In this document: positions 3,019-56,712 of the stretch, in pieces
How positions within the stretch are numbered: the stretch's first letter is position 1
How the letters are laid out: every line of letters begins with the position of its first letter
Virus record (IMG/VR): IMGVR_UViG_3300042901_002340
From: a virus
Taxonomy: Duplodnaviria > Heunggongvirae > Uroviricota > Caudoviricetes
DNA: 64,000 nt
Direction: 5' to 3' (one strand)
Position numbers and translations under genes: made by a program
The notes under the pieces: generated by a model
Told to the model about the DNA's origin: nothing
Database searches by the model: none
The model's input: the letters and a program-made list of their open reading frames with translations, nothing else

Positions 3019-5511
3019 TTATTTATTTCTTGCAAATTTTGGGATATTTAGCAAAGGTTTAGCATTATCTATTATATGTGCTAGTTGAGAATCTCTAACA
3101 ATATTCTGATTAAGCACTGTTGATTGGTTATCTATATCTATCATATTCTTAAATAGTCTTACATTACTAATGTATATTGGACCGGTGTATATCTTGTAAG
3201 AGTTATTATCGGTACCGTAATATGGACTAAACTTATTGGTAACTATATTTGAAGGAGCGCTGAAAACTATATGATCAGTAAACATTCTAGAATCCTCTTG
3301 TAATTTCTCAAGCTTACTAGATTGATCGGGCGAACTGTTTGTTGGATCGTAAGTAATTCCCCATATTATTGACGATATTTGTTTATAAACATTCGAGAAG
3401 TTTATAACTATACCATACCATTCGTCTATGACTGGTACAAATTGTAGAGTTGAATTTATTGTAAGATCATTGAATCTAACAACAAGACTTCCGGTTTCTA
3501 AAAACCTATTAGTTAAATCATCGGTAATACCTGAATGTATAATATCTGCTCTAAATCCTTTAATGTCCCCATTTTGATCCTCATAAAGTCCACTTATTAA
3601 ATTTCTAGATTGTGCTTTTTGCATTATCCATGTTGTTGGCTGGAGAGAAAAATTTTGGGATTTATTTATAACAGTAAATCTATATTCATCTATCACAGAC
3701 TCAACCTTATATCCGCCACTATGTGTAAAATCACCTTTTATCGCTACATACCCCTCAGGATTACTGTCATATGATTCCCATCTTTGGAGATTATGCTTTC
3801 TTGGGTACGAATTAAAGACAAGGAGATCATCATCATATGATTCCAAAGTGATATTTACAACAGGATATGGTCTTTTGGACAATTGCTGATTATTATAAAG
3901 ATTTCTAATACTGAACCATGATGTGAATGCTAATTCTTCACCTATACTAATTTTTGGTAGCATCTTGTATCTTATTGCCTGTCTATATTGCTTGGTTGCA
4001 TAGGTAAAATCTGAATCATCAGCAAAAGCTGAATAAAGATCATAATAATCGTTAAATACTATTGTCCAGTTATTATTGAGATCATACCCAATTATTTCTA
4101 GATCCTTATAAACATAGGATCTTATAGGATCCTGCGACATTTGTGTTATCGTCGTTGCATACTGTTGGGGATTTGTTATTTTAAGTTCCTCGTTCTCAAC
4201 CTCGGTTCCAAATAAATCACTAGTAGTAAGACTTATACCATCAAGTTCCTCTTTGTATGCAGGATCTCTAAAATATGTGTTACTTTTAGGGTTATATTTC
4301 TTAAGCTCCATTTTAAAATAAACAGGAGCATTCATAAAGTCTCTAAATAAATAGGTCGAATTTATTTCATATATTCTATTTGTTATTGGAAAATATATAA
4401 TGTCCCTCTTTCTTGGCTGTGATCCTCTACCAAATATTGACTCAAAATATCTTTTATCCATCTGAACCTCAAATGGATCTTCATAATTTAATCCAAAAGG
4501 ATCAAAATTTATTTTATTGTCAGGAAATTGATTCTGATTAACCATTAATTTAACACATTTCTCGGAGACAACATTAAATATTGTGTATTCTCTAAGAACA
4601 ACGTCCCTACCCCTAGCCTGTGGCTGAACAGAATAATAATTTGCATCAAGTCCAAACATCTTATTGACCATAAGACTTAAATCCTGGTATATGTTTAGTG
4701 CTTTATTGACAGCATAAGGTTTAAATGTAAACCCACAATCGGAAAATACCACAGGTCTATTCGAACTCTCAGGAGAACAAACTGGTGCGGGTCTTATCTG
4801 AACCTTCTCCGGTCCTACCACGAAATCAAGATCAAGATCGAAGCTAACAATAACCACCGATGGATCTATAGGTTCATTAGAATTATAAATTATACCACCA
4901 TCCGAGCCTATTAAAACAGAGGTAAATCTAAACTCCGGATAAAATTTATTGGCAGGATCCAGATTTATAGGAAAAACATCAGAAAAATTATTTGTTAACC
5001 CATTAAGAGCTGTTCCAACATTAGTCCATAACGACCATGTTTTTCCATCTATGCTGTACCTAAAATCTATTACTATATCATCGGAATTAAGTATTGGCCC
5101 ATTATTATTCGAATAGAAAGTATCTATTATCCATCCGTTAAATTTTGTTACATTCTCGAAAGGTTTATCCCAAGATAATACCCTATAACTACCTATATAC
5201 GTGAAGTTTAAGGCACTTTCGAGTTGTTCCATTCTTAAACCATAGTATTCAGGAGTTTCGCACGGCATATACATTGTATTACCGTTTACCACAATTTCAT
5301 GGAACCCACCACAACCTATCTGTTTAGCTCTAGCCATTGCGGCTCCCTCGGTACTAAATATATTATCAACGGAGGATTCCAGAACCTTCTCCGTATTTTC
5401 TAGTCCATCGTGATATGAATATCTAGGATCAGAAATACTATATTGCTCGCCCTCGGTATTATACACAGGCGTACCTTTTTTTGGAAATCTATTCTCTGGG
5501 TAAAAGCTCAT
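3019..5511 (-). CDS. Virion structural protein with neck (gp14-like) region
   Basis: 830 aa; FDPFGL...FESIFG...PRKRDIIYFPITNRIYEI resembles T4 gp14 neck protein; GATATATA motif upstream. Confidence 0.55.
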   Translation of the reverse strand: MSFYPENRFPKKGTPVYNTEGEQYSISDPRYSYHDGLENTEKVLESSVDNIFSTEGAAMARAKQIGCGGFHEIVVNGNTMYMPCETPEYYGLRMEQLESALNFTYIGSYRVLSWDKPFENVTKFNGWIIDTFYSNNNGPILNSDDIVIDFRYSIDGKTWSLWTNVGTALNGLTNNFSDVFPINLDPANKFYPEFRFTSVLIGSDGGIIYNSNEPIDPSVVIVSFDLDLDFVVGPEKVQIRPAPVCSPESSNRPVVFSDCGFTFKPYAVNKALNIYQDLSLMVNKMFGLDANYYSVQPQARGRDVVLREYTIFNVVSEKCVKLMVNQNQFPDNKINFDPFGLNYEDPFEVQMDKRYFESIFGRGSQPRKRDIIYFPITNRIYEINSTYLFRDFMNAPVYFKMELKKYNPKSNTYFRDPAYKEELDGISLTTSDLFGTEVENEELKITNPQQYATTITQMSQDPIRSYVYKDLEIIGYDLNNNWTIVFNDYYDLYSAFADDSDFTYATKQYRQAIRYKMLPKISIGEELAFTSWFSIRNLYNNQQLSKRPYPVVNITLESYDDDLLVFNSYPRKHNLQRWESYDSNPEGYVAIKGDFTHSGGYKVESVIDEYRFTVINKSQNFSLQPTTWIMQKAQSRNLISGLYEDQNGDIKGFRADIIHSGITDDLTNRFLETGSLVVRFNDLTINSTLQFVPVIDEWYGIVINFSNVYKQISSIIWGITYDPTNSSPDQSSKLEKLQEDSRMFTDHIVFSAPSNIVTNKFSPYYGTDNNSYKIYTGPIYISNVRLFKNMIDIDNQSTVLNQNIVRDSQLAHIIDNAKPLLNIPKFARNK

Positions 5512-6233: not shown

Positions 6234-6980
6234 TTATAATATCTCTCTGTTTCGAGGAGGATTTGTATTTTTTGATATAATCTGTTTAGCTTTAAGTCCA
6301 GCTTGCATAAGGTTACCTCTAAATCTCTCGGTCGAAAGGTCCTTATCAGGGAAATATGTTTCAAGAGCTATTGAAAAATTGAATGTTATATATTCCTGAT
6401 TTCCGTATGTGAATTCATATTGCTTTGTAGACTCATAATCCTCAGGAAACCCCACGGTTGCAGGAATTCTTATTCCTTCGTATTCAAAACTATAACTATA
6501 AGTTTTATAGAATGTTCTGATAACACTTTGATACATCTTGAAAGAATCAAGAAGTGTATCTATTTTCATAGCTATGTTAAAAGTAATATTAAGGGGTATG
6601 GATGTAGTGTGTGAGGAAAGGGTTTTCATTTCACCCTTTACGTCTTCAACCGCATAGGACATTCTAACATATTTATTAGTTAATGCTTGAGTATCAATCA
6701 TACTCGATTGATAAGAAACTACACCTCTCGGCAGAATATCGTAATTACCCTCAGCATGTGGTTTATCAGTAACACAATCCTGATACTCTATAAAGGAGTC
6801 CTGAAGGAAAGCTTCATCCCCTGTAAGGGAAAAAAAGAATGGAACATACACCTCTATTTTTTCCTGCTGATCATTCACTTGAAAGTATGTTACTTTCTCA
6901 TTTAACGATCTAAGCAAACCTATTATTAGATTTCTTAGATATACGTCATCCATATTAAACTTCTCCAAAAATCCGGACAT
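6234..6980 (-). CDS. Tail sheath stabiliser / tail completion protein (gp15-like)
   Basis: YLRNLIIGLL, IEVYVP, ILPRG, IPLNITFNI pattern resembles T4 gp15. Confidence 0.65.
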   Translation of the reverse strand: MSGFLEKFNMDDVYLRNLIIGLLRSLNEKVTYFQVNDQQEKIEVYVPFFFSLTGDEAFLQDSFIEYQDCVTDKPHAEGNYDILPRGVVSYQSSMIDTQALTNKYVRMSYAVEDVKGEMKTLSSHTTSIPLNITFNIAMKIDTLLDSFKMYQSVIRTFYKTYSYSFEYEGIRIPATVGFPEDYESTKQYEFTYGNQEYITFNFSIALETYFPDKDLSTERFRGNLMQAGLKAKQIISKNTNPPRNREIL

Positions 6981-9923: not shown

Positions 9924-11044
9924 TATAATTTCTTCTCCTGCTCCTGATTTACCACCATAGTATGGAGTTTAAATAAACTTGTAATTATTTTTTTCTTAAC
10001 GTCATCATCAGAGTCCATGGAATCAACATAAGCTTTTATGAAATCAAGAACATTAAACTGTGTATCACTATCTGAATCAACCATCTGATCAGTTAAGGTT
10101 GTTGACTTATCCGGATCGTATGGGTGAAATTTAAGGAATCTTTGTGTGGTTATCATATCGGTAAGCATACTCAGAGGTGCCTTAAGAGCCATAACCGGAT
10201 CTATCATAATATCAACAAAATTATTTCTGAATTTAGGCTCAAGCTCATCCGGGGTAGATTCCAAGATATCACCAAAATAGAACTTTTTAAATCTAGGAGA
10301 AAAAGTATTTATGTGAACCATTTCAATCATATCCTCTAGATTTAATACAGTAATAGATTTTGGATTGTCCATATCAGATCTAGTTAGTTCATAGGGAGAT
10401 CCAAGCATGGTTATATTTTCATACTTTTGAGAATAATGAATATGACCGGAATAAACCTTGGTAAATTTTTTAAATTTGGTTACATCCGCACCAGATTCAA
10501 CATTAACATATTTGTTAAATTTTAATCCTCTAATATCAGCATGACAGCAAAGAACATCATGCGGTTCCACATATTCTAAAGTTTCAGTTTCTGCGTTATG
10601 GTCCTTCCTCCATGGCATAAGGAAGAAATTCTTATCCATCAGCTTTAGCGTAACTGGATCCTCAAATATGTTTATACCCGGGACCCATTTTATGGATTTG
10701 AGCGAATTTACCTCGTTTGTATTTTTTCCAAATATATCATGATTACCAACAATAACATAAACACCATCAGTAAATATGGAAGATAATTCCTCGGCAATGG
10801 ATATACCTAGATTAAGTACCTTAAGATTTATACTCTGTCTGGAATCAAAAAAATCGCCGAGATGAATAAGCACATCACCCGGCTGATAATTTTTTCTTAC
10901 TAGAGGGAAAAACCAATCAAAGAAATATTCCCTTGTTTGGTCTATCCATTCATTCGAATTGTTTCTTACCCCTAAATGAGTATCCGTTATAAACCAAACT
11001 CTTCTTGCTTTATCGTTTACCAATTTTATAGGTCCTTCATTCAT
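9923..11044 (-). CDS. Recombination nuclease subunit (gp47/SbcD/Mre11-like)
   Basis: DTHLG, GDFFD, GNHD, SGHIH metallophosphoesterase motifs; adjacent to gp46-like gene. Confidence 0.95.
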   Translation of the reverse strand: MNEGPIKLVNDKARRVWFITDTHLGVRNNSNEWIDQTREYFFDWFFPLVRKNYQPGDVLIHLGDFFDSRQSINLKVLNLGISIAEELSSIFTDGVYVIVGNHDIFGKNTNEVNSLKSIKWVPGINIFEDPVTLKLMDKNFFLMPWRKDHNAETETLEYVEPHDVLCCHADIRGLKFNKYVNVESGADVTKFKKFTKVYSGHIHYSQKYENITMLGSPYELTRSDMDNPKSITVLNLEDMIEMVHINTFSPRFKKFYFGDILESTPDELEPKFRNNFVDIMIDPVMALKAPLSMLTDMITTQRFLKFHPYDPDKSTTLTDQMVDSDSDTQFNVLDFIKAYVDSMDSDDDVKKKIITSLFKLHTMVVNQEQEKKL

Positions 11045-52561: not shown

Positions 52562-54142
52562 TTAGATCACAATGGCTTCGATTTCTCTCAAAATTGCTTT
52601 TGGATCAACCTCAGCTTTTTTGATCATCTCGTAGATATCAGCAGAGTAACCAAAAAGTTGAACTAATTTGTTACCTGGTTTGAACATGGTTGTACCATAT
52701 CCTTGAATATCCACCGTGTAGATGAACGGCTCACCGTGTTTAGATTTGTAAGATTGGAAAGAACTGTTTGTAACGATTCTATCACCACCTTGTAAATCCG
52801 ATATGATGAAGACGCGGTCATATTTACCGCTTGATTGTAAAGTTGAGAAGATTGAACCGAAGTCCGTACCGTGTCCAACCCTACCTTGTAAGCTTAAACA
52901 TGTGTTTTTGATAGTGTTTATGCTATCACCTGGATTGTATCTAATATCCTCAGTTGTTGTTGCAAATTGATATAAATCAGCACCAATACCTTTTGCTAGG
53001 GTTGCTCCGATAAGAGCAGCTTTATCGATACAGTGTTTATTGATAGCTTTACCATTCATTTTAACACCTTGACCCATTCCGTGCATAGATCCTGACGTAT
53101 CTATAACAACAGCAGTTCTACCATGTGAGAATAATTCAACCAAGTTTGGTATTGCTAACTCGTAAGCTTTATTTAAAGCAGTAACGAATGGTCTAGATGC
53201 AGAAGCACTAGTTTCTTGTAAAAGAATCTCCAAAGCAATATCTATTTGGTGTGGGAAAACCAATGATTTTCTGATTAATTTCTCATCGATTAAAAGCTCA
53301 CATGCTCCACTAACTAATTCAGAGTTTGCGCTTGTGTTGATGATGTTTCTTAAGTTACGAAGCAATGCCAAGTAACCAATTTTTCTTGTTTTAATCAATT
53401 CAGCATAGTTGCTTTCTTTAGCCTGTGTTAATTCAACTTCAGCTTGAGCCTTGGTGATTTCCCCAGATTTAACTTTTGCAGCAACATCTTGTCCAGCTTT
53501 TGAGTTTTTATCCTCAACTGTATTGAACTGTTTTAATTTACCGGTCATAAGATCTTTAAAAACACCTTCCATTTGTGTGGTTGCTGGTTTTGGACGAACC
53601 AAGTTAACAACATCCACAAGAGAAACTGATTTTCCTTTACCTTGATATTTAGCTAATTCGTAGGTATCTGCTGATTCCAAAGCTGCTTTAAAACCTTTCT
53701 TCATTGAGTTAGGTAATGGTTTACCTGGATTGAAGTGTTGGTAAGCTGCAATGATCTCTAATACGTCATCTAAACGGTTTACAATACCCCCGGTTTTAGC
53801 ATTCTTATCTCTTTTTGAGAAGAATCTTTTACCTATGGCTGAACCAGATAAATGTTTAACTAATGACACAGATCCAAAGTGTGTTACAGATCTTTGTCCA
53901 ACAACTGTTCTCGCGTACACGAGCGCTTTCGCGACGAATTCAATATCTTTTTTAGATAATTCGTCGATGAGTTGAATGAGTCTATTCTCTCTATCTGATA
54001 ATTTTTCGTAGTATGAATTGTCTAATCCAGTGGTAAGAATTGCAATTAATTCCAATTTTGGATCATACTTCACACCAGTACCACCTTGGTGGTTTGTAAC
54101 TGTCTCTACAGTTCTTTTTACTTTTTGGTTGTAACGTGACAT
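52562..54142 (-). CDS. Ro60/Rsr TROVE-vWA RNA-binding protein
   Basis: TNHQGG N-terminus, YELAKYQ, LVDVVNLVRP, YLALLRNLRNI, vWA DTSGSM, GTDF, IISDLQ, GYS. Confidence 0.92.
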   Translation of the reverse strand: MSRYNQKVKRTVETVTNHQGGTGVKYDPKLELIAILTTGLDNSYYEKLSDRENRLIQLIDELSKKDIEFVAKALVYARTVVGQRSVTHFGSVSLVKHLSGSAIGKRFFSKRDKNAKTGGIVNRLDDVLEIIAAYQHFNPGKPLPNSMKKGFKAALESADTYELAKYQGKGKSVSLVDVVNLVRPKPATTQMEGVFKDLMTGKLKQFNTVEDKNSKAGQDVAAKVKSGEITKAQAEVELTQAKESNYAELIKTRKIGYLALLRNLRNIINTSANSELVSGACELLIDEKLIRKSLVFPHQIDIALEILLQETSASASRPFVTALNKAYELAIPNLVELFSHGRTAVVIDTSGSMHGMGQGVKMNGKAINKHCIDKAALIGATLAKGIGADLYQFATTTEDIRYNPGDSINTIKNTCLSLQGRVGHGTDFGSIFSTLQSSGKYDRVFIISDLQGGDRIVTNSSFQSYKSKHGEPFIYTVDIQGYGTTMFKPGNKLVQLFGYSADIYEMIKKAEVDPKAILREIEAIVI

Positions 54143-54557
54143 GATTATAATTGTTTATTCGTTTATATTATAAAATTGAGTTATCGAAAAGATAAAGCAT
54201 ATAGACCAGGTCAAATGCAAGATCAATGTCAAAGACCTTCCTCTATCGCAAAGGCAAGGACAAAAACTAAGTCTCGTTAGTTAGCCAATTATCTGCCTAG
54301 TGGTAAAGAGGTATCTTTCTCTATGGCTTTCAGTAACTTGTCTAACAATTGAGTTCTATCTCAGTTTTGTTTATTTTTATAGAAGAAGCGGAGTTTTGAG
54401 GCTCCCGAAGGAACCTCACAATTGCTGTATATGATTAATAGTCATTTATCTTATAAGATAATGGCTTGACGCCATTAATTAAAGGACCTTATCTCTCCGA
54501 ATCAAAGCATCAGGGGAATCGGCTTTTGCTTACCCCATCAGCACCTCAATTTATTTT

Positions 54558-55481
54558 TTATTTTTCTAGTTGTTTCAGAAACTCATCAACAACTGGTTGG
54601 AATCTAGCATCAACCTCGATTTTAAGGTTTACCGCTTCCGTGATTTTATTCTGACGCTCAGTTTCGAAATCTAGCTGAGCTTTTTTATAATCAGCTAGCC
54701 AAGATTCTCTCTTTTTGCTGTACTCGTTCATAGAAAGAGCATTTTTCTCGTTTACCTCAGCTTGCGCATCGGCATTCAATTTAGAGATTCTTGCATTCTC
54801 CTTGGTTACTGAATTCTTAACCTTCGATTTGAAGTAGTTAACTCTTTGTTCATAGCCTCTATGAAGAGCTGCCAACTCCTCGTGTGTTTTTAATAGTTCC
54901 TCAGACTTGTGATGCACGTTAACCTTGATAGGTGTTTTCTTACCCACCTCGACCTCCATAAACTCAAGGAGCTGAATCTTAGGCAATTCAGATCTTAAAC
55001 GATCTAACGTTCCACCTTTATGTATGAATTGACCTATGTGTGAAGCATAAGCCTCAGCCTCGATGAATTCATTATATTCTTCCATTGAGAGTTGTTCCCA
55101 ACCCCAATCCTCACTAACTTGAGAAAGAACTTCAGGTTGAACACTAGGTTCCCTCGTCGGTGCCGGATTTTCATTCTCGTAATCGAAATACTCGGTTTTG
55201 ATCCCGTTTATCATCACATCCTTAGCTTTTATATTCTCCATTAGGAAAGCCTGGGTTGCATGCAATCTCGCCTTTGATTTAAGAAGTTCTACAACATCAG
55301 TAGGCATAGGTTTTGCAGCGGTTAACTTATGATCCTCCTTAGAGATCTTTATCGTTTTTGATGCGTTATTGATATCAGCTAAAGCTGCAGTGATATCTTT
55401 TGATCTTTGGTTACAAAGATTTGATACTGATTGAGCTTGAGACATTGATAATCCTTTTGATGCTAATGAATTTCTTTTCAT
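54558..55481 (-). CDS. Coiled-coil hypothetical protein upstream of Ro60
   Basis: 307 aa clean ORF. Confidence 0.8.
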   Translation of the reverse strand: MKRNSLASKGLSMSQAQSVSNLCNQRSKDITAALADINNASKTIKISKEDHKLTAAKPMPTDVVELLKSKARLHATQAFLMENIKAKDVMINGIKTEYFDYENENPAPTREPSVQPEVLSQVSEDWGWEQLSMEEYNEFIEAEAYASHIGQFIHKGGTLDRLRSELPKIQLLEFMEVEVGKKTPIKVNVHHKSEELLKTHEELAALHRGYEQRVNYFKSKVKNSVTKENARISKLNADAQAEVNEKNALSMNEYSKKRESWLADYKKAQLDFETERQNKITEAVNLKIEVDARFQPVVDEFLKQLEK

Positions 55482-55566: not shown

Positions 55567-55575
55567 ATAAAACTA

Positions 55576-55716
55576 ACAGAGAATGATGTAAGAAGTGTGA
55601 ACAATTTAATGTCTGATTTACTGTCAGATGACTTAACCACTTGTCTAAATTTCCATTTTGGCGGAAACTATCGGAGTCGAACCGATGTGCGATGTAACTT
55701 CTATACTTACTACTGT
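55576..55716 (-). ncRNA. Y-RNA-like element A (circularly permuted tRNA opened at variable loop)
   Basis: Order: helix 5' strand, T arm atcgg-ttcgact-ccgat, acceptor agtttcc-gcca, aaat, ggaaatt, D arm, tctga-cagtaaa-tcaga, helix 3' strand. Confidence 0.75.
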
Positions 55717-55725
55717 CGTATGTTT

Positions 55726-55880
55726 TATAAGGGAATGATGTAAATAGCGTTTTTTCTAACGTGCTCTACCAACTGAGCTATTCCCCCAAATTTTTAATTT
55801 GTTTGGTGGGGGAAGATGGATTCGAACCACCGACACCGTGCTTTCAATGCGCGAAGTAACTATTTTACTGACCACTTATA
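55726..55880 (-). ncRNA. Y-RNA-like element B (YrlA-like, permuted tRNA opened at anticodon arm)
   Basis: Helix 5' strand, gcacg, T arm ggtgg-ttcgaat-ccatc, ttccccc-acca, linker, gggggaa, D arm gctc-agttggta-gagc, cgt, helix 3' strand. Confidence 0.8.
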
Positions 55881-55890
55881 ATATGTTTTT

Positions 55891-56020
55891 TGTAAGGGAA
55901 TGACAGGACGAAAGAAATGATGTTTTTGTGGGAGTTGAACCCACTACCTTAAATACCAAAAATTTACGATCTACCAAATGATCTAAAAAACGATGAATTT
56001 CGTTACCTTTACCACTTACA
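55891..56020 (-). ncRNA. Y-RNA-like element C (unpermuted tRNA body, helix continues acceptor stem)
   Basis: tgtaag/cttaca terminal helix; gttttt/aaaaac, D arm gatc, taaat-ttttggt-attta, T arm gtggg-ttcaact-cccac. Confidence 0.72.
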
Positions 56021-56097: not shown

Positions 56098-56712
56098 TTA
56101 TTTTTTTCTTTGTGTTTTTCCGAATTTCCATCCATCTGGTGGAATTTCTTCCTTACTCAATCTTGCATTCTCTGTCCCGTTTGTTATCCAACCGAGACCT
56201 TTCAATTTATTTTGTATTGCTCCTAATTTCCAACCTTCTGGTATGGAGACATCACTTTTAATTTTTTTTGAATTTGTACCATCGTTAATCCATCTGGTTC
56301 CAAATTGTGAATTTTTATTTCCCTGTTGATTCCCTAGATTCCTCGATGAGATATGCTTTAATTCACCGCTTAGATATCTTGGATCATCGACTCTTACATT
56401 TATAAAATTTCCATCGTTGTCAATTACTGTTGAGAATCCATTTGTATGAAAACTTTTTCCTGGAACATGATAATTTCTATTTAGTTGATTCCTTATATTT
56501 TTATAGATCTCTATAGATTCAAATTCAATTGCTTCCTCTCTATTACTAAAACCTTCACTTAGTATCATTTTTCTAAGTTTTGTTTTATCAGGATTCCATG
56601 TTTTCATTGATCCTAGATATGAATCTATTGATGGGTGAACCTTACTGCTTCTGCTTCCTATATAATATTCACCAGTCTCTATATGCTCAACCTTATAAAC
56701 GTAATGATACAT
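56098..56712 (-). CDS. GIY-YIG (Seg-like) homing endonuclease
   Basis: HYVYKVEH..TGEYYIGSR, YLGS, repeated WI(N/T).GT and GWK.G modules. Confidence 0.85.
   Translation of the reverse strand: MYHYVYKVEHIETGEYYIGSRSSKVHPSIDSYLGSMKTWNPDKTKLRKMILSEGFSNREEAIEFESIEIYKNIRNQLNRNYHVPGKSFHTNGFSTVIDNDGNFINVRVDDPRYLSGELKHISSRNLGNQQGNKNSQFGTRWINDGTNSKKIKSDVSIPEGWKLGAIQNKLKGLGWITNGTENARLSKEEIPPDGWKFGKTQRKK

Follow-up and report, generated by a model that had tools for sequence, protein, structure and literature searches.

What are three tRNA-like RNAs doing side by side upstream of a Ro60 gene in a phage genome? The question is raised by a 64,000-nt stretch of DNA (hereafter the window) taken from a virus record of 430,120 bp that has direct terminal repeats (IMGVR_UViG_3300042901_002340; Caudoviricetes). 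A sequence-only reading of the window had described three adjacent elements, named here A, B and C, that share an interrupted terminal helix with covarying outer pairs. This description was borne out by reading the minus strand, by minimum free energy (MFE) folds, by alignments of relatives and by R1, a covariance model built solely from 51 short relatives of the helix in other phages. Collectively, our results show that the array elements are real structured RNAs in which one helix, which we call the handle, is joined to tRNA-like bodies at three junctions. Judging from sequence comparisons, A, B and C are probably Y-type non-coding RNAs of a phage Ro60 ribonucleoprotein, with payloads that would be tRNA mimics serving as baits or adaptors. 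Along the minus strand the elements follow one another in the order C, B, A; the array reaches 55574 and not, as first described, 55576:

55891..56020, minus strand: element C, handle around an unpermuted tRNA-like body; the MFE fold closes the handle; R1 29.9 bits
55920..55992, minus strand: tRNA-like payload of C; Rfam tRNA (RF00005) 55.2 bits, gathering score 29; called tRNA-Gln UUG by ARAGORN at 55919-55992
55726..55880, minus strand: element B, handle plus YrlA-type permuted tRNA mimic; R1 38.9 bits
55815-55831, 55781-55814 and 55763-55778, minus strand: T arm, closed acceptor hairpin and D arm of B
55574..55718, minus strand: element A, handle at the variable region of a permuted class-II-like tRNA mimic; R1 38.2 bits
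55670-55686, 55648-55669 and 55630-55645, minus strand: T arm, closed acceptor hairpin with GCCA, and D arm of A
55612..55628, minus strand: anticodon-like arm of A, 5-bp stem UCUGA/UCAGA, loop CAGUAAA
55526..55566, minus strand: intrinsic terminator closing the array, a 15-bp hairpin and then a U run; -18.5 kcal/mol, z -4.4
52562..54142, minus strand: Ro60/TROVE gene, the presumed protein partner; Pfam TROVE E 8.3e-11

The outer stem of the handle comprises 5-6 bp (tgtaag/cttaca in C, tataag/cttata in B, gacag/ctgtt in A) and is followed by a bulged U and a 2-bp step, GG/CC in C and B and AG/CU in A. Next come an internal loop (5' UAA or UCA, 3' ..CAUU) and a second covarying stem, after which the array carries the motif UUAC(U/A)UCG, with the variant UUCAUCG in C; this motif was missing from the sequence-only reading. 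MFE folding recovered the handle in all three elements. R1 matched A at full length (E 1.7e-6) and B at full length with 24.4-38.9 bits, the higher value being obtained with default filters, while C was missed by the default filters and matched end to end with filters off (E 1.9e-6). The two-pair step covaries without exception in the viral-locus set, save for G-U variants in one locus (L014), and 12 of 14 pairs are compensatory in the short handle-only class (51 sequences). A long terminal stem made from the 5' and 3' ends and containing a conserved bulged helix is a trait of Y RNAs, and both covariation and R1 place it in this array.

Element C was correctly described as an unpermuted tRNA attached through its acceptor end, as the tRNA scores listed above show. 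Its anticodon UUG sits in the loop UUUUGGU, its acceptor stem is almost all AU with a C1xA72 mismatch, no CCA is encoded, and the 5' and 3' ends of the payload run into the handle. The payload differs from the tRNA-Gln that the phage carries at 62925-62996, which is GC-rich. Among 22 aligned C-type sequences, 22 of 29 pairs are compensatory. Two subtypes can be told apart: C1 has a 7-position acceptor stem, and in C2 the 5' strand of that stem is missing.

In element B, a V hairpin, the T arm, a closed acceptor with an ACCA loop and the D arm follow one another without an anticodon arm, which is the order of YrlA, and the D arm has the class-I sequence that YrlA RNAs keep almost without change. 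When the window was searched with Rfam at gathering thresholds, tRNAs alone were returned; B gave the sole sub-threshold YrlA match (RF02553; 33.8 bits, E 1.9e-5, gathering score 69 bits). Compensatory changes affect 22 of the 31 pairs in an alignment of eight B-type sequences. The earlier identification of B as a YrlA-like permuted mimic is upheld by its arm order; we take B to be a divergent YrlA, a structure supported by covariation.

Element A begins with the T arm and continues with a closed 7-bp acceptor hairpin (GCCA loop), a 3-bp D arm, one linker nucleotide and a 5-bp stem with a 7-nt loop, the handle departing from the variable region. Permutation at this region and a GUA anticodon arm had both been recognized from the sequence; the loop, CAGUAAA, has A instead of U at position 33 and is poorly suited to decoding. 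RNAalifold analysis of 18 A-type sequences gave 35 pairs, 29 of them compensatory, which cover the handle, the second stem, the T arm, the acceptor, the D arm and the anticodon arm. Because A is permuted, its match to the Rfam tRNA model is only partial (21.7 bits). The A-type D arm is class-II-like, with a 3-bp stem and the loop AAGUGGUUAA, and many A-type copies combine G73 with a GG start, a combination reminiscent of tRNA-Ser. In a class II tRNA, the handle would fit naturally at the position of the long variable arm. The internal NCCA that had been reported for A and B is present in the window and is not conserved: it occurs in about a third of A-type lineages, many others having a 4-5 nt acceptor loop without CCA, and reads ACUA in the closest relatives of B. 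Opening and charging of the acceptor loop is therefore not a general property of these RNAs.

The same handle was found with a series of payloads:

No payload (66-90 nt): 80 copies detected
T arm only (~112 nt): 18 copies by a first-pass classifier, including several mis-sized or C2-like elements
B payload (YrlA-like): about 10 copies
A payload: 24 copies
C payload (ARAGORN-called tRNA): 26 copies

ARAGORN applied to rotated sequences recognized only four permuted elements as tRNAs, one of them a B-type false call, and was replaced by an explicit search for D and anticodon arms. Each type holds its own outer-stem sequence across phages, which indicates that the types are old. A fourth cassette of handle and tRNA, designated D, lies between tRNA-Ile and element C in three loci (L003:3881-4003, L004 and L005), with the anticodon UUG, or UUA in L005. 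It is cleanly absent from the window and from L023 and L024, the empty junction reading AGAAATAT, then CTCTAAG. An open reading frame (ORF) resembling GIY-YIG homing endonucleases (56098-56712) fills the interval of the window where other phages hold this fourth cassette.

Is the handle linked to Ro60? The 52562-54142 ORF lies ~1.4 kb from the end of the array, which is upstream and on the same strand, and profile comparisons identify it as a genuine Ro60/TROVE gene. Its family matches phrog_850 (E 4.6e-31), and a profile of the ORF with eight relatives matched the Ro60 of Thermus phage phiLo best and at full length (9KOP/9L5Y; E 4.9e-29), followed by Deinococcus radiodurans Rsr (E 2.3e-9) and Xenopus Ro60 (E 6.5e-8); human Ro60 was also matched. 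We searched 99 loci, 19 viral and 80 metagenomic, that encode relatives of this protein (28-98% identity), using a strict detector that combines the handle helix with the motif UAC(W)UC. It returned 158 handles on the Ro60 strand, one on the opposite strand and none in shuffled sequence. With flanks of equal length searched on either side of the gene, 139 handles were upstream (median 545 nt), 19 downstream and none inside, and a single locus could hold up to seven. In the phage's own 430-kb genome, the full handle (helix and motif) is confined to the window array.

The reverse search, from motif to gene, gave a similar picture. A short-handle sequence pattern, applied to viral contigs without requiring outer-stem pairing, returned 80 loci; within the few kb fetched, a Ro60 homologue was present at 19 of the 33 loci with at least 5/6 outer pairs, at 9/9 of those with 6/6 pairs, and at 1/47 of the poorly paired loci. 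R1 detects handles beside Ro60 genes of just 24-36% identity and in Bacillus phage G (L022), where a YrlA-like element (~4985-5140) with the same handle lies 2 kb upstream of the TROVE gene. A scan of genome contigs yielded nine loci, all on contigs of metagenome-assembled genomes mostly binned as Bacteroidota, and these are plausibly phage-derived. The handle recurs next to Ro60 genes of very distant phage lineages. We conclude that it is closely tied to Ro60/TROVE genes, with a clear directional preference, in ~100 phage loci and in the motif-first search, a pattern that would be expected of Ro60 partner RNAs.

Further RNA signals accompany these loci. Phage G has a second, short handle match (6667-6750, 27.3 bits) in a ~1-kb unannotated gap just upstream of TROVE gp540. 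At L069:4606-4667, a match to the Rfam orphan motif freshwater-1 (45.9 bits, E 8e-10, gathering score 72) lies directly upstream of A-/B-type handle RNAs and Ro60; it was rejected as a handle and is a separate RNA, and freshwater-1 may be part of phage tRNA/Ro60 islands.

How do these RNAs compare with known Y RNAs? YrlA RNAs, Y RNAs with tRNA-like domains adjoining Ro60, were described in 2014, with Bacillus phage G among the phage cases (Chen et al., PMC4201824), and are stated to have no anticodon loop (Wang et al. 2018, 10.1101/312249). The array resembles them in its position next to Ro60, its terminal stem built from the 5' and 3' ends, the YUAY motif after that stem (here UUAC) and, for B, the order T arm, closed acceptor stem-loop, D arm and the near-invariant D-arm sequence; phage examples of YrlA, phage G included, carry the handle of the array. 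In contrast to the GNCGAA of YrlA, the array handle reads AGU(R)GU(R)A ... UUC(Y)CU; A adds a full anticodon arm to the YrlA order and has its handle in the variable region, and C is unpermuted. Element C, and subtype C2 most of all, resembles Yrn1, a Y RNA of D. radiodurans Rsr, in which a D-like arm, an anticodon-like arm and a T arm stand in normal order with the Ro60-binding stem at the acceptor end (PMC4201824); Yrn1, however, lacks a variable arm, its D arm is only partial and its loop has 6 nt, whereas C is a complete cloverleaf called by tRNA finders.

The sequence-only reading had considered the topologies of both A and C new. Our literature searches found no paper on either type, and none that describes a full anticodon arm in RNAs closed by the handle, a variable-arm junction or loop hypervariability; A still looks new, while the orientation of C is partly precedented by Yrn1. 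Phage phiLo offers an experimental parallel: its Ro60 binds host PNPase as well as two Y-like RNAs encoded upstream (PMC12135203). There, as here, a phage Ro60 gene follows tandem Y-like RNAs (Yrl1/Yrl2), with binding shown by experiment for phiLo; the phiLo RNAs, however, are simple stem-bulge-stem structures with a CGAA motif, for which no tRNA payloads or anticodon arms are reported. TROVE proteins were also noted in a survey of jumbo phages, in connection with RNA repair and a tRNA-like partner (PMC7824862).

The anticodon loops of the payloads proved to be mutation hot spots among near-identical relatives. The A-type anticodon arm has 5/5 stem pairs and a 7-nt loop in 24/24 detected copies, its loops are mostly CU-NNN-AA, and at least 12 distinct triplets occur; C-type payloads have at least 15, UUA and UCA among them. 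Payload loops usually have U33 and a purine at position 37. When A-type copies with identities of 90% or more outside the loop were compared in pairs, differences were found at 17 of 49 loop sites and at 13 of 963 other sites (odds ratio 39), a comparison made on non-independent pairs that reflect about two events in the window clade. In that clade the loops CAGUAAA, AUGAAAA and CUCAUAA stand on otherwise nearly unchanged RNA; they resemble the anticodon loops of the tRNAs for Tyr, Phe and Met that the phage itself encodes, and two of them deviate at position 33 or 32. Cassette D varies between UUG and UUA in near-identical phages, and C2 between CAA and UGA (two changes in the loop, one elsewhere). 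When compared with the phage's own tRNAs, the payloads were not recent copies. A diversity-generating retroelement was rejected as the source of the hot spot, as the changes are not confined to A positions.

If the array RNAs are Ro60 partners, the handle would dock on Ro60 in the manner of the bulged Y RNA helix, and the other end would be an exchangeable payload imitating tRNA. The B payload would imitate the elbow only, like YrlA; that of A would imitate a whole class-II tRNA in which the handle replaces the long variable arm; and that of C would be an entire tRNA body in normal order. With their ends locked in the handle (C) or their acceptor closed into a hairpin (A and B), the payloads probably take no part in translation. 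They would instead offer tRNA-binding proteins a set of tRNA shapes, true anticodon stem-loops among them. We favour a role as baits or competitive inhibitors of host tRNA-targeting enzymes such as anticodon nucleases, or as adaptors bringing tRNA-targeting proteins or damaged tRNAs to Ro60. Either way, the loop sequences would be retuned quickly. The decoy or adaptor role is a hypothesis that fits the fast-changing anticodon loops and the published suggestion that YrlA might competitively inhibit an anticodon nuclease (Hughes et al., PMC7790460).

A bolder version, which we put forward tentatively and judge rather unlikely, is that phage Ro60 particles hold a set of interchangeable RNA baits, in which complete anticodon stem-loops on one handle copy particular tRNAs and trap, inhibit or report host anticodon nucleases, single loop mutations retargeting the bait in an arms race. 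The loops of the window clade resemble those of tRNA-Tyr with U33A, Phe with C32A, Met, Gln and Lys.

Several observations weigh against the array RNAs being Ro60-bound tRNA mimics. We infer binding to Ro60 from gene neighbourhood only. The 5'-strand Ro60 motif, bacterial GNCGAA(N)G or metazoan GGUCCGA, was not found at the expected position in the handle, whose 5' strand reads AGU(G/A)GU(A/C)A; a UCG, often UCGAA in the short relatives, follows the second stem, outside the bacterial position. B falls below the YrlA gathering score, and its relatives and the phage G element reach just 31-36 bits. In addition to the small number of loop events, the hot spot is strongest in one clade, and UGU or UGA loops are unchanged in others. 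Finally, C, as a C1-subtype element with a 7-position acceptor stem and a good tRNA score, could mature into a working tRNA.

This last point leads to the main rival explanation, in which C1-type elements, and possibly A, would be matured conditionally into tRNAs. The handle would then be a conserved duplex of leader and trailer that sets the timing of this maturation or controls it, whether or not Ro60 takes part. We consider it unlikely. RNase P would cut after UACUUC and free a tRNA with a swappable anticodon on a common chassis, for example replacing tRNAs destroyed by the host or supplying suppressors. The first G of the acceptor stem retained by C1 elements is the G of the UUCG motif, the 55.2 bits of C fall inside the range of the phage's own tRNAs (50.9-72.2 bits), and the usual U33 and purine 37, like the anticodons UUA and UCA, agree with such products. 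The YrlA of Mycobacterium smegmatis is indeed cut by RNase P in its acceptor hairpin and given CCA (PMC4201824). However, the same handle closes B-type and T-arm-only RNAs and the 80 short RNAs, which are unable to yield a tRNA; C2 has no 5' acceptor-stem strand; A has A33, and many of its lineages have the short acceptor loop without CCA; anticodons vary on an otherwise unchanged body; and C duplicates an ordinary tRNA-Gln UUG already in the window.

We regard it as improbable that the handle binds a protein other than Ro60, or nothing, and is found near TROVE genes merely because both sit in phage tRNA islands. Such an explanation would agree with the fact that gene neighbourhood is what points to Ro60 binding, with the missing bacterial motif, with the 14 of 33 well-paired motif-first loci where the fetched stretch has no Ro60, and with the 307-aa ORF (54558-55481) that sits between the array and Ro60. 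Yet in a tRNA island spanning ~16 kb all three full handles are just upstream of Ro60, the median distance from handle to gene is short (545 nt), a locus without the 307-aa ORF (L006) has its array directly abutting Ro60, and the association persists down to Ro60 genes of 24-36% identity.

It is very improbable that A and B represent the circularly permuted tRNA genes known from algae and archaea, in which case the terminal helix would be excised, the ends joined by the phage RNA ligases and the acceptor loop opened to give a normal tRNA. The 3' half does precede the 5' half, as in such genes and in two-piece transfer-messenger RNA (tmRNA), with the T-arm half before the D-arm half and a loop-closed acceptor end, NCCA is present in both window loops and the phage has Rnl1- and Rnl2-type ligases. 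But B has no anticodon arm, and NCCA is not conserved. Permuted tRNA genes and two-piece tmRNA are processed to functional tRNA or tmRNA, whereas the handle also closes RNAs with no tRNA part and is linked to Ro60. A bulge-helix-bulge consists of a 3-nt bulge, a 4-bp helix and a 3-nt bulge, and reading the handle as one was rejected on geometry.

The surroundings of the array are those of a tRNA island. ARAGORN called 26 tRNA genes in the window, every one on the minus strand, which also carries the array and the Ro60 gene; CCA is encoded in one of 25 ordinary tRNA genes (Asp), and acceptor stems are GC-rich in all. R1 gave a further match at 47214-47300 on the minus strand (25.9 bits, E 1.4e-3), with a near-perfect 5' handle half at 47300-47270; a clean 3' half was looked for there and none was found. 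Downstream of this half, within window positions 46965-47300, lie four T-arm-like hairpins, a CAU tRNA-like element (47002-47071; 27.7 bits, sub-threshold) and a terminator, and the whole may be a degenerate or compound fourth handle RNA ending tRNA block 1. An ORF-free gap of 415 nt (54143-54557, minus strand) separates the 307-aa ORF from Ro60; it gave no handle match, R1 included, nor did Rfam match it at gathering score. A long leader or one more non-coding RNA could lie here.

The phage encodes three enzymes of RNA repair type (positions on G000:C1):

10319-10846: T4 Rnl1-type RNA ligase, 66 bits
32821-33360: Rnl2-type RNA ligase, 84 bits
37712-38128: CCA-adding/PolyA_pol-type nucleotidyltransferase, 73 bits

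RtcB was looked for in the phage's own genome and not found. The two ligases and the CCA-adding-type enzyme place the Ro60 system in a setting of tRNA damage and repair.

Taken together, these phages present a natural series on a single handle, from no payload through a T arm, an elbow and a whole tRNA with anticodon arm to an unpermuted tRNA. This series, together with anticodon loops that change between near-identical phages, points to some partner that recognizes the anticodon end. The family would add a large group of RNAs outside Rfam to phage tRNA islands, and may offer a way to probe the purpose of the tRNA-like domain of bacterial Y RNAs, a question that dates from 2014.
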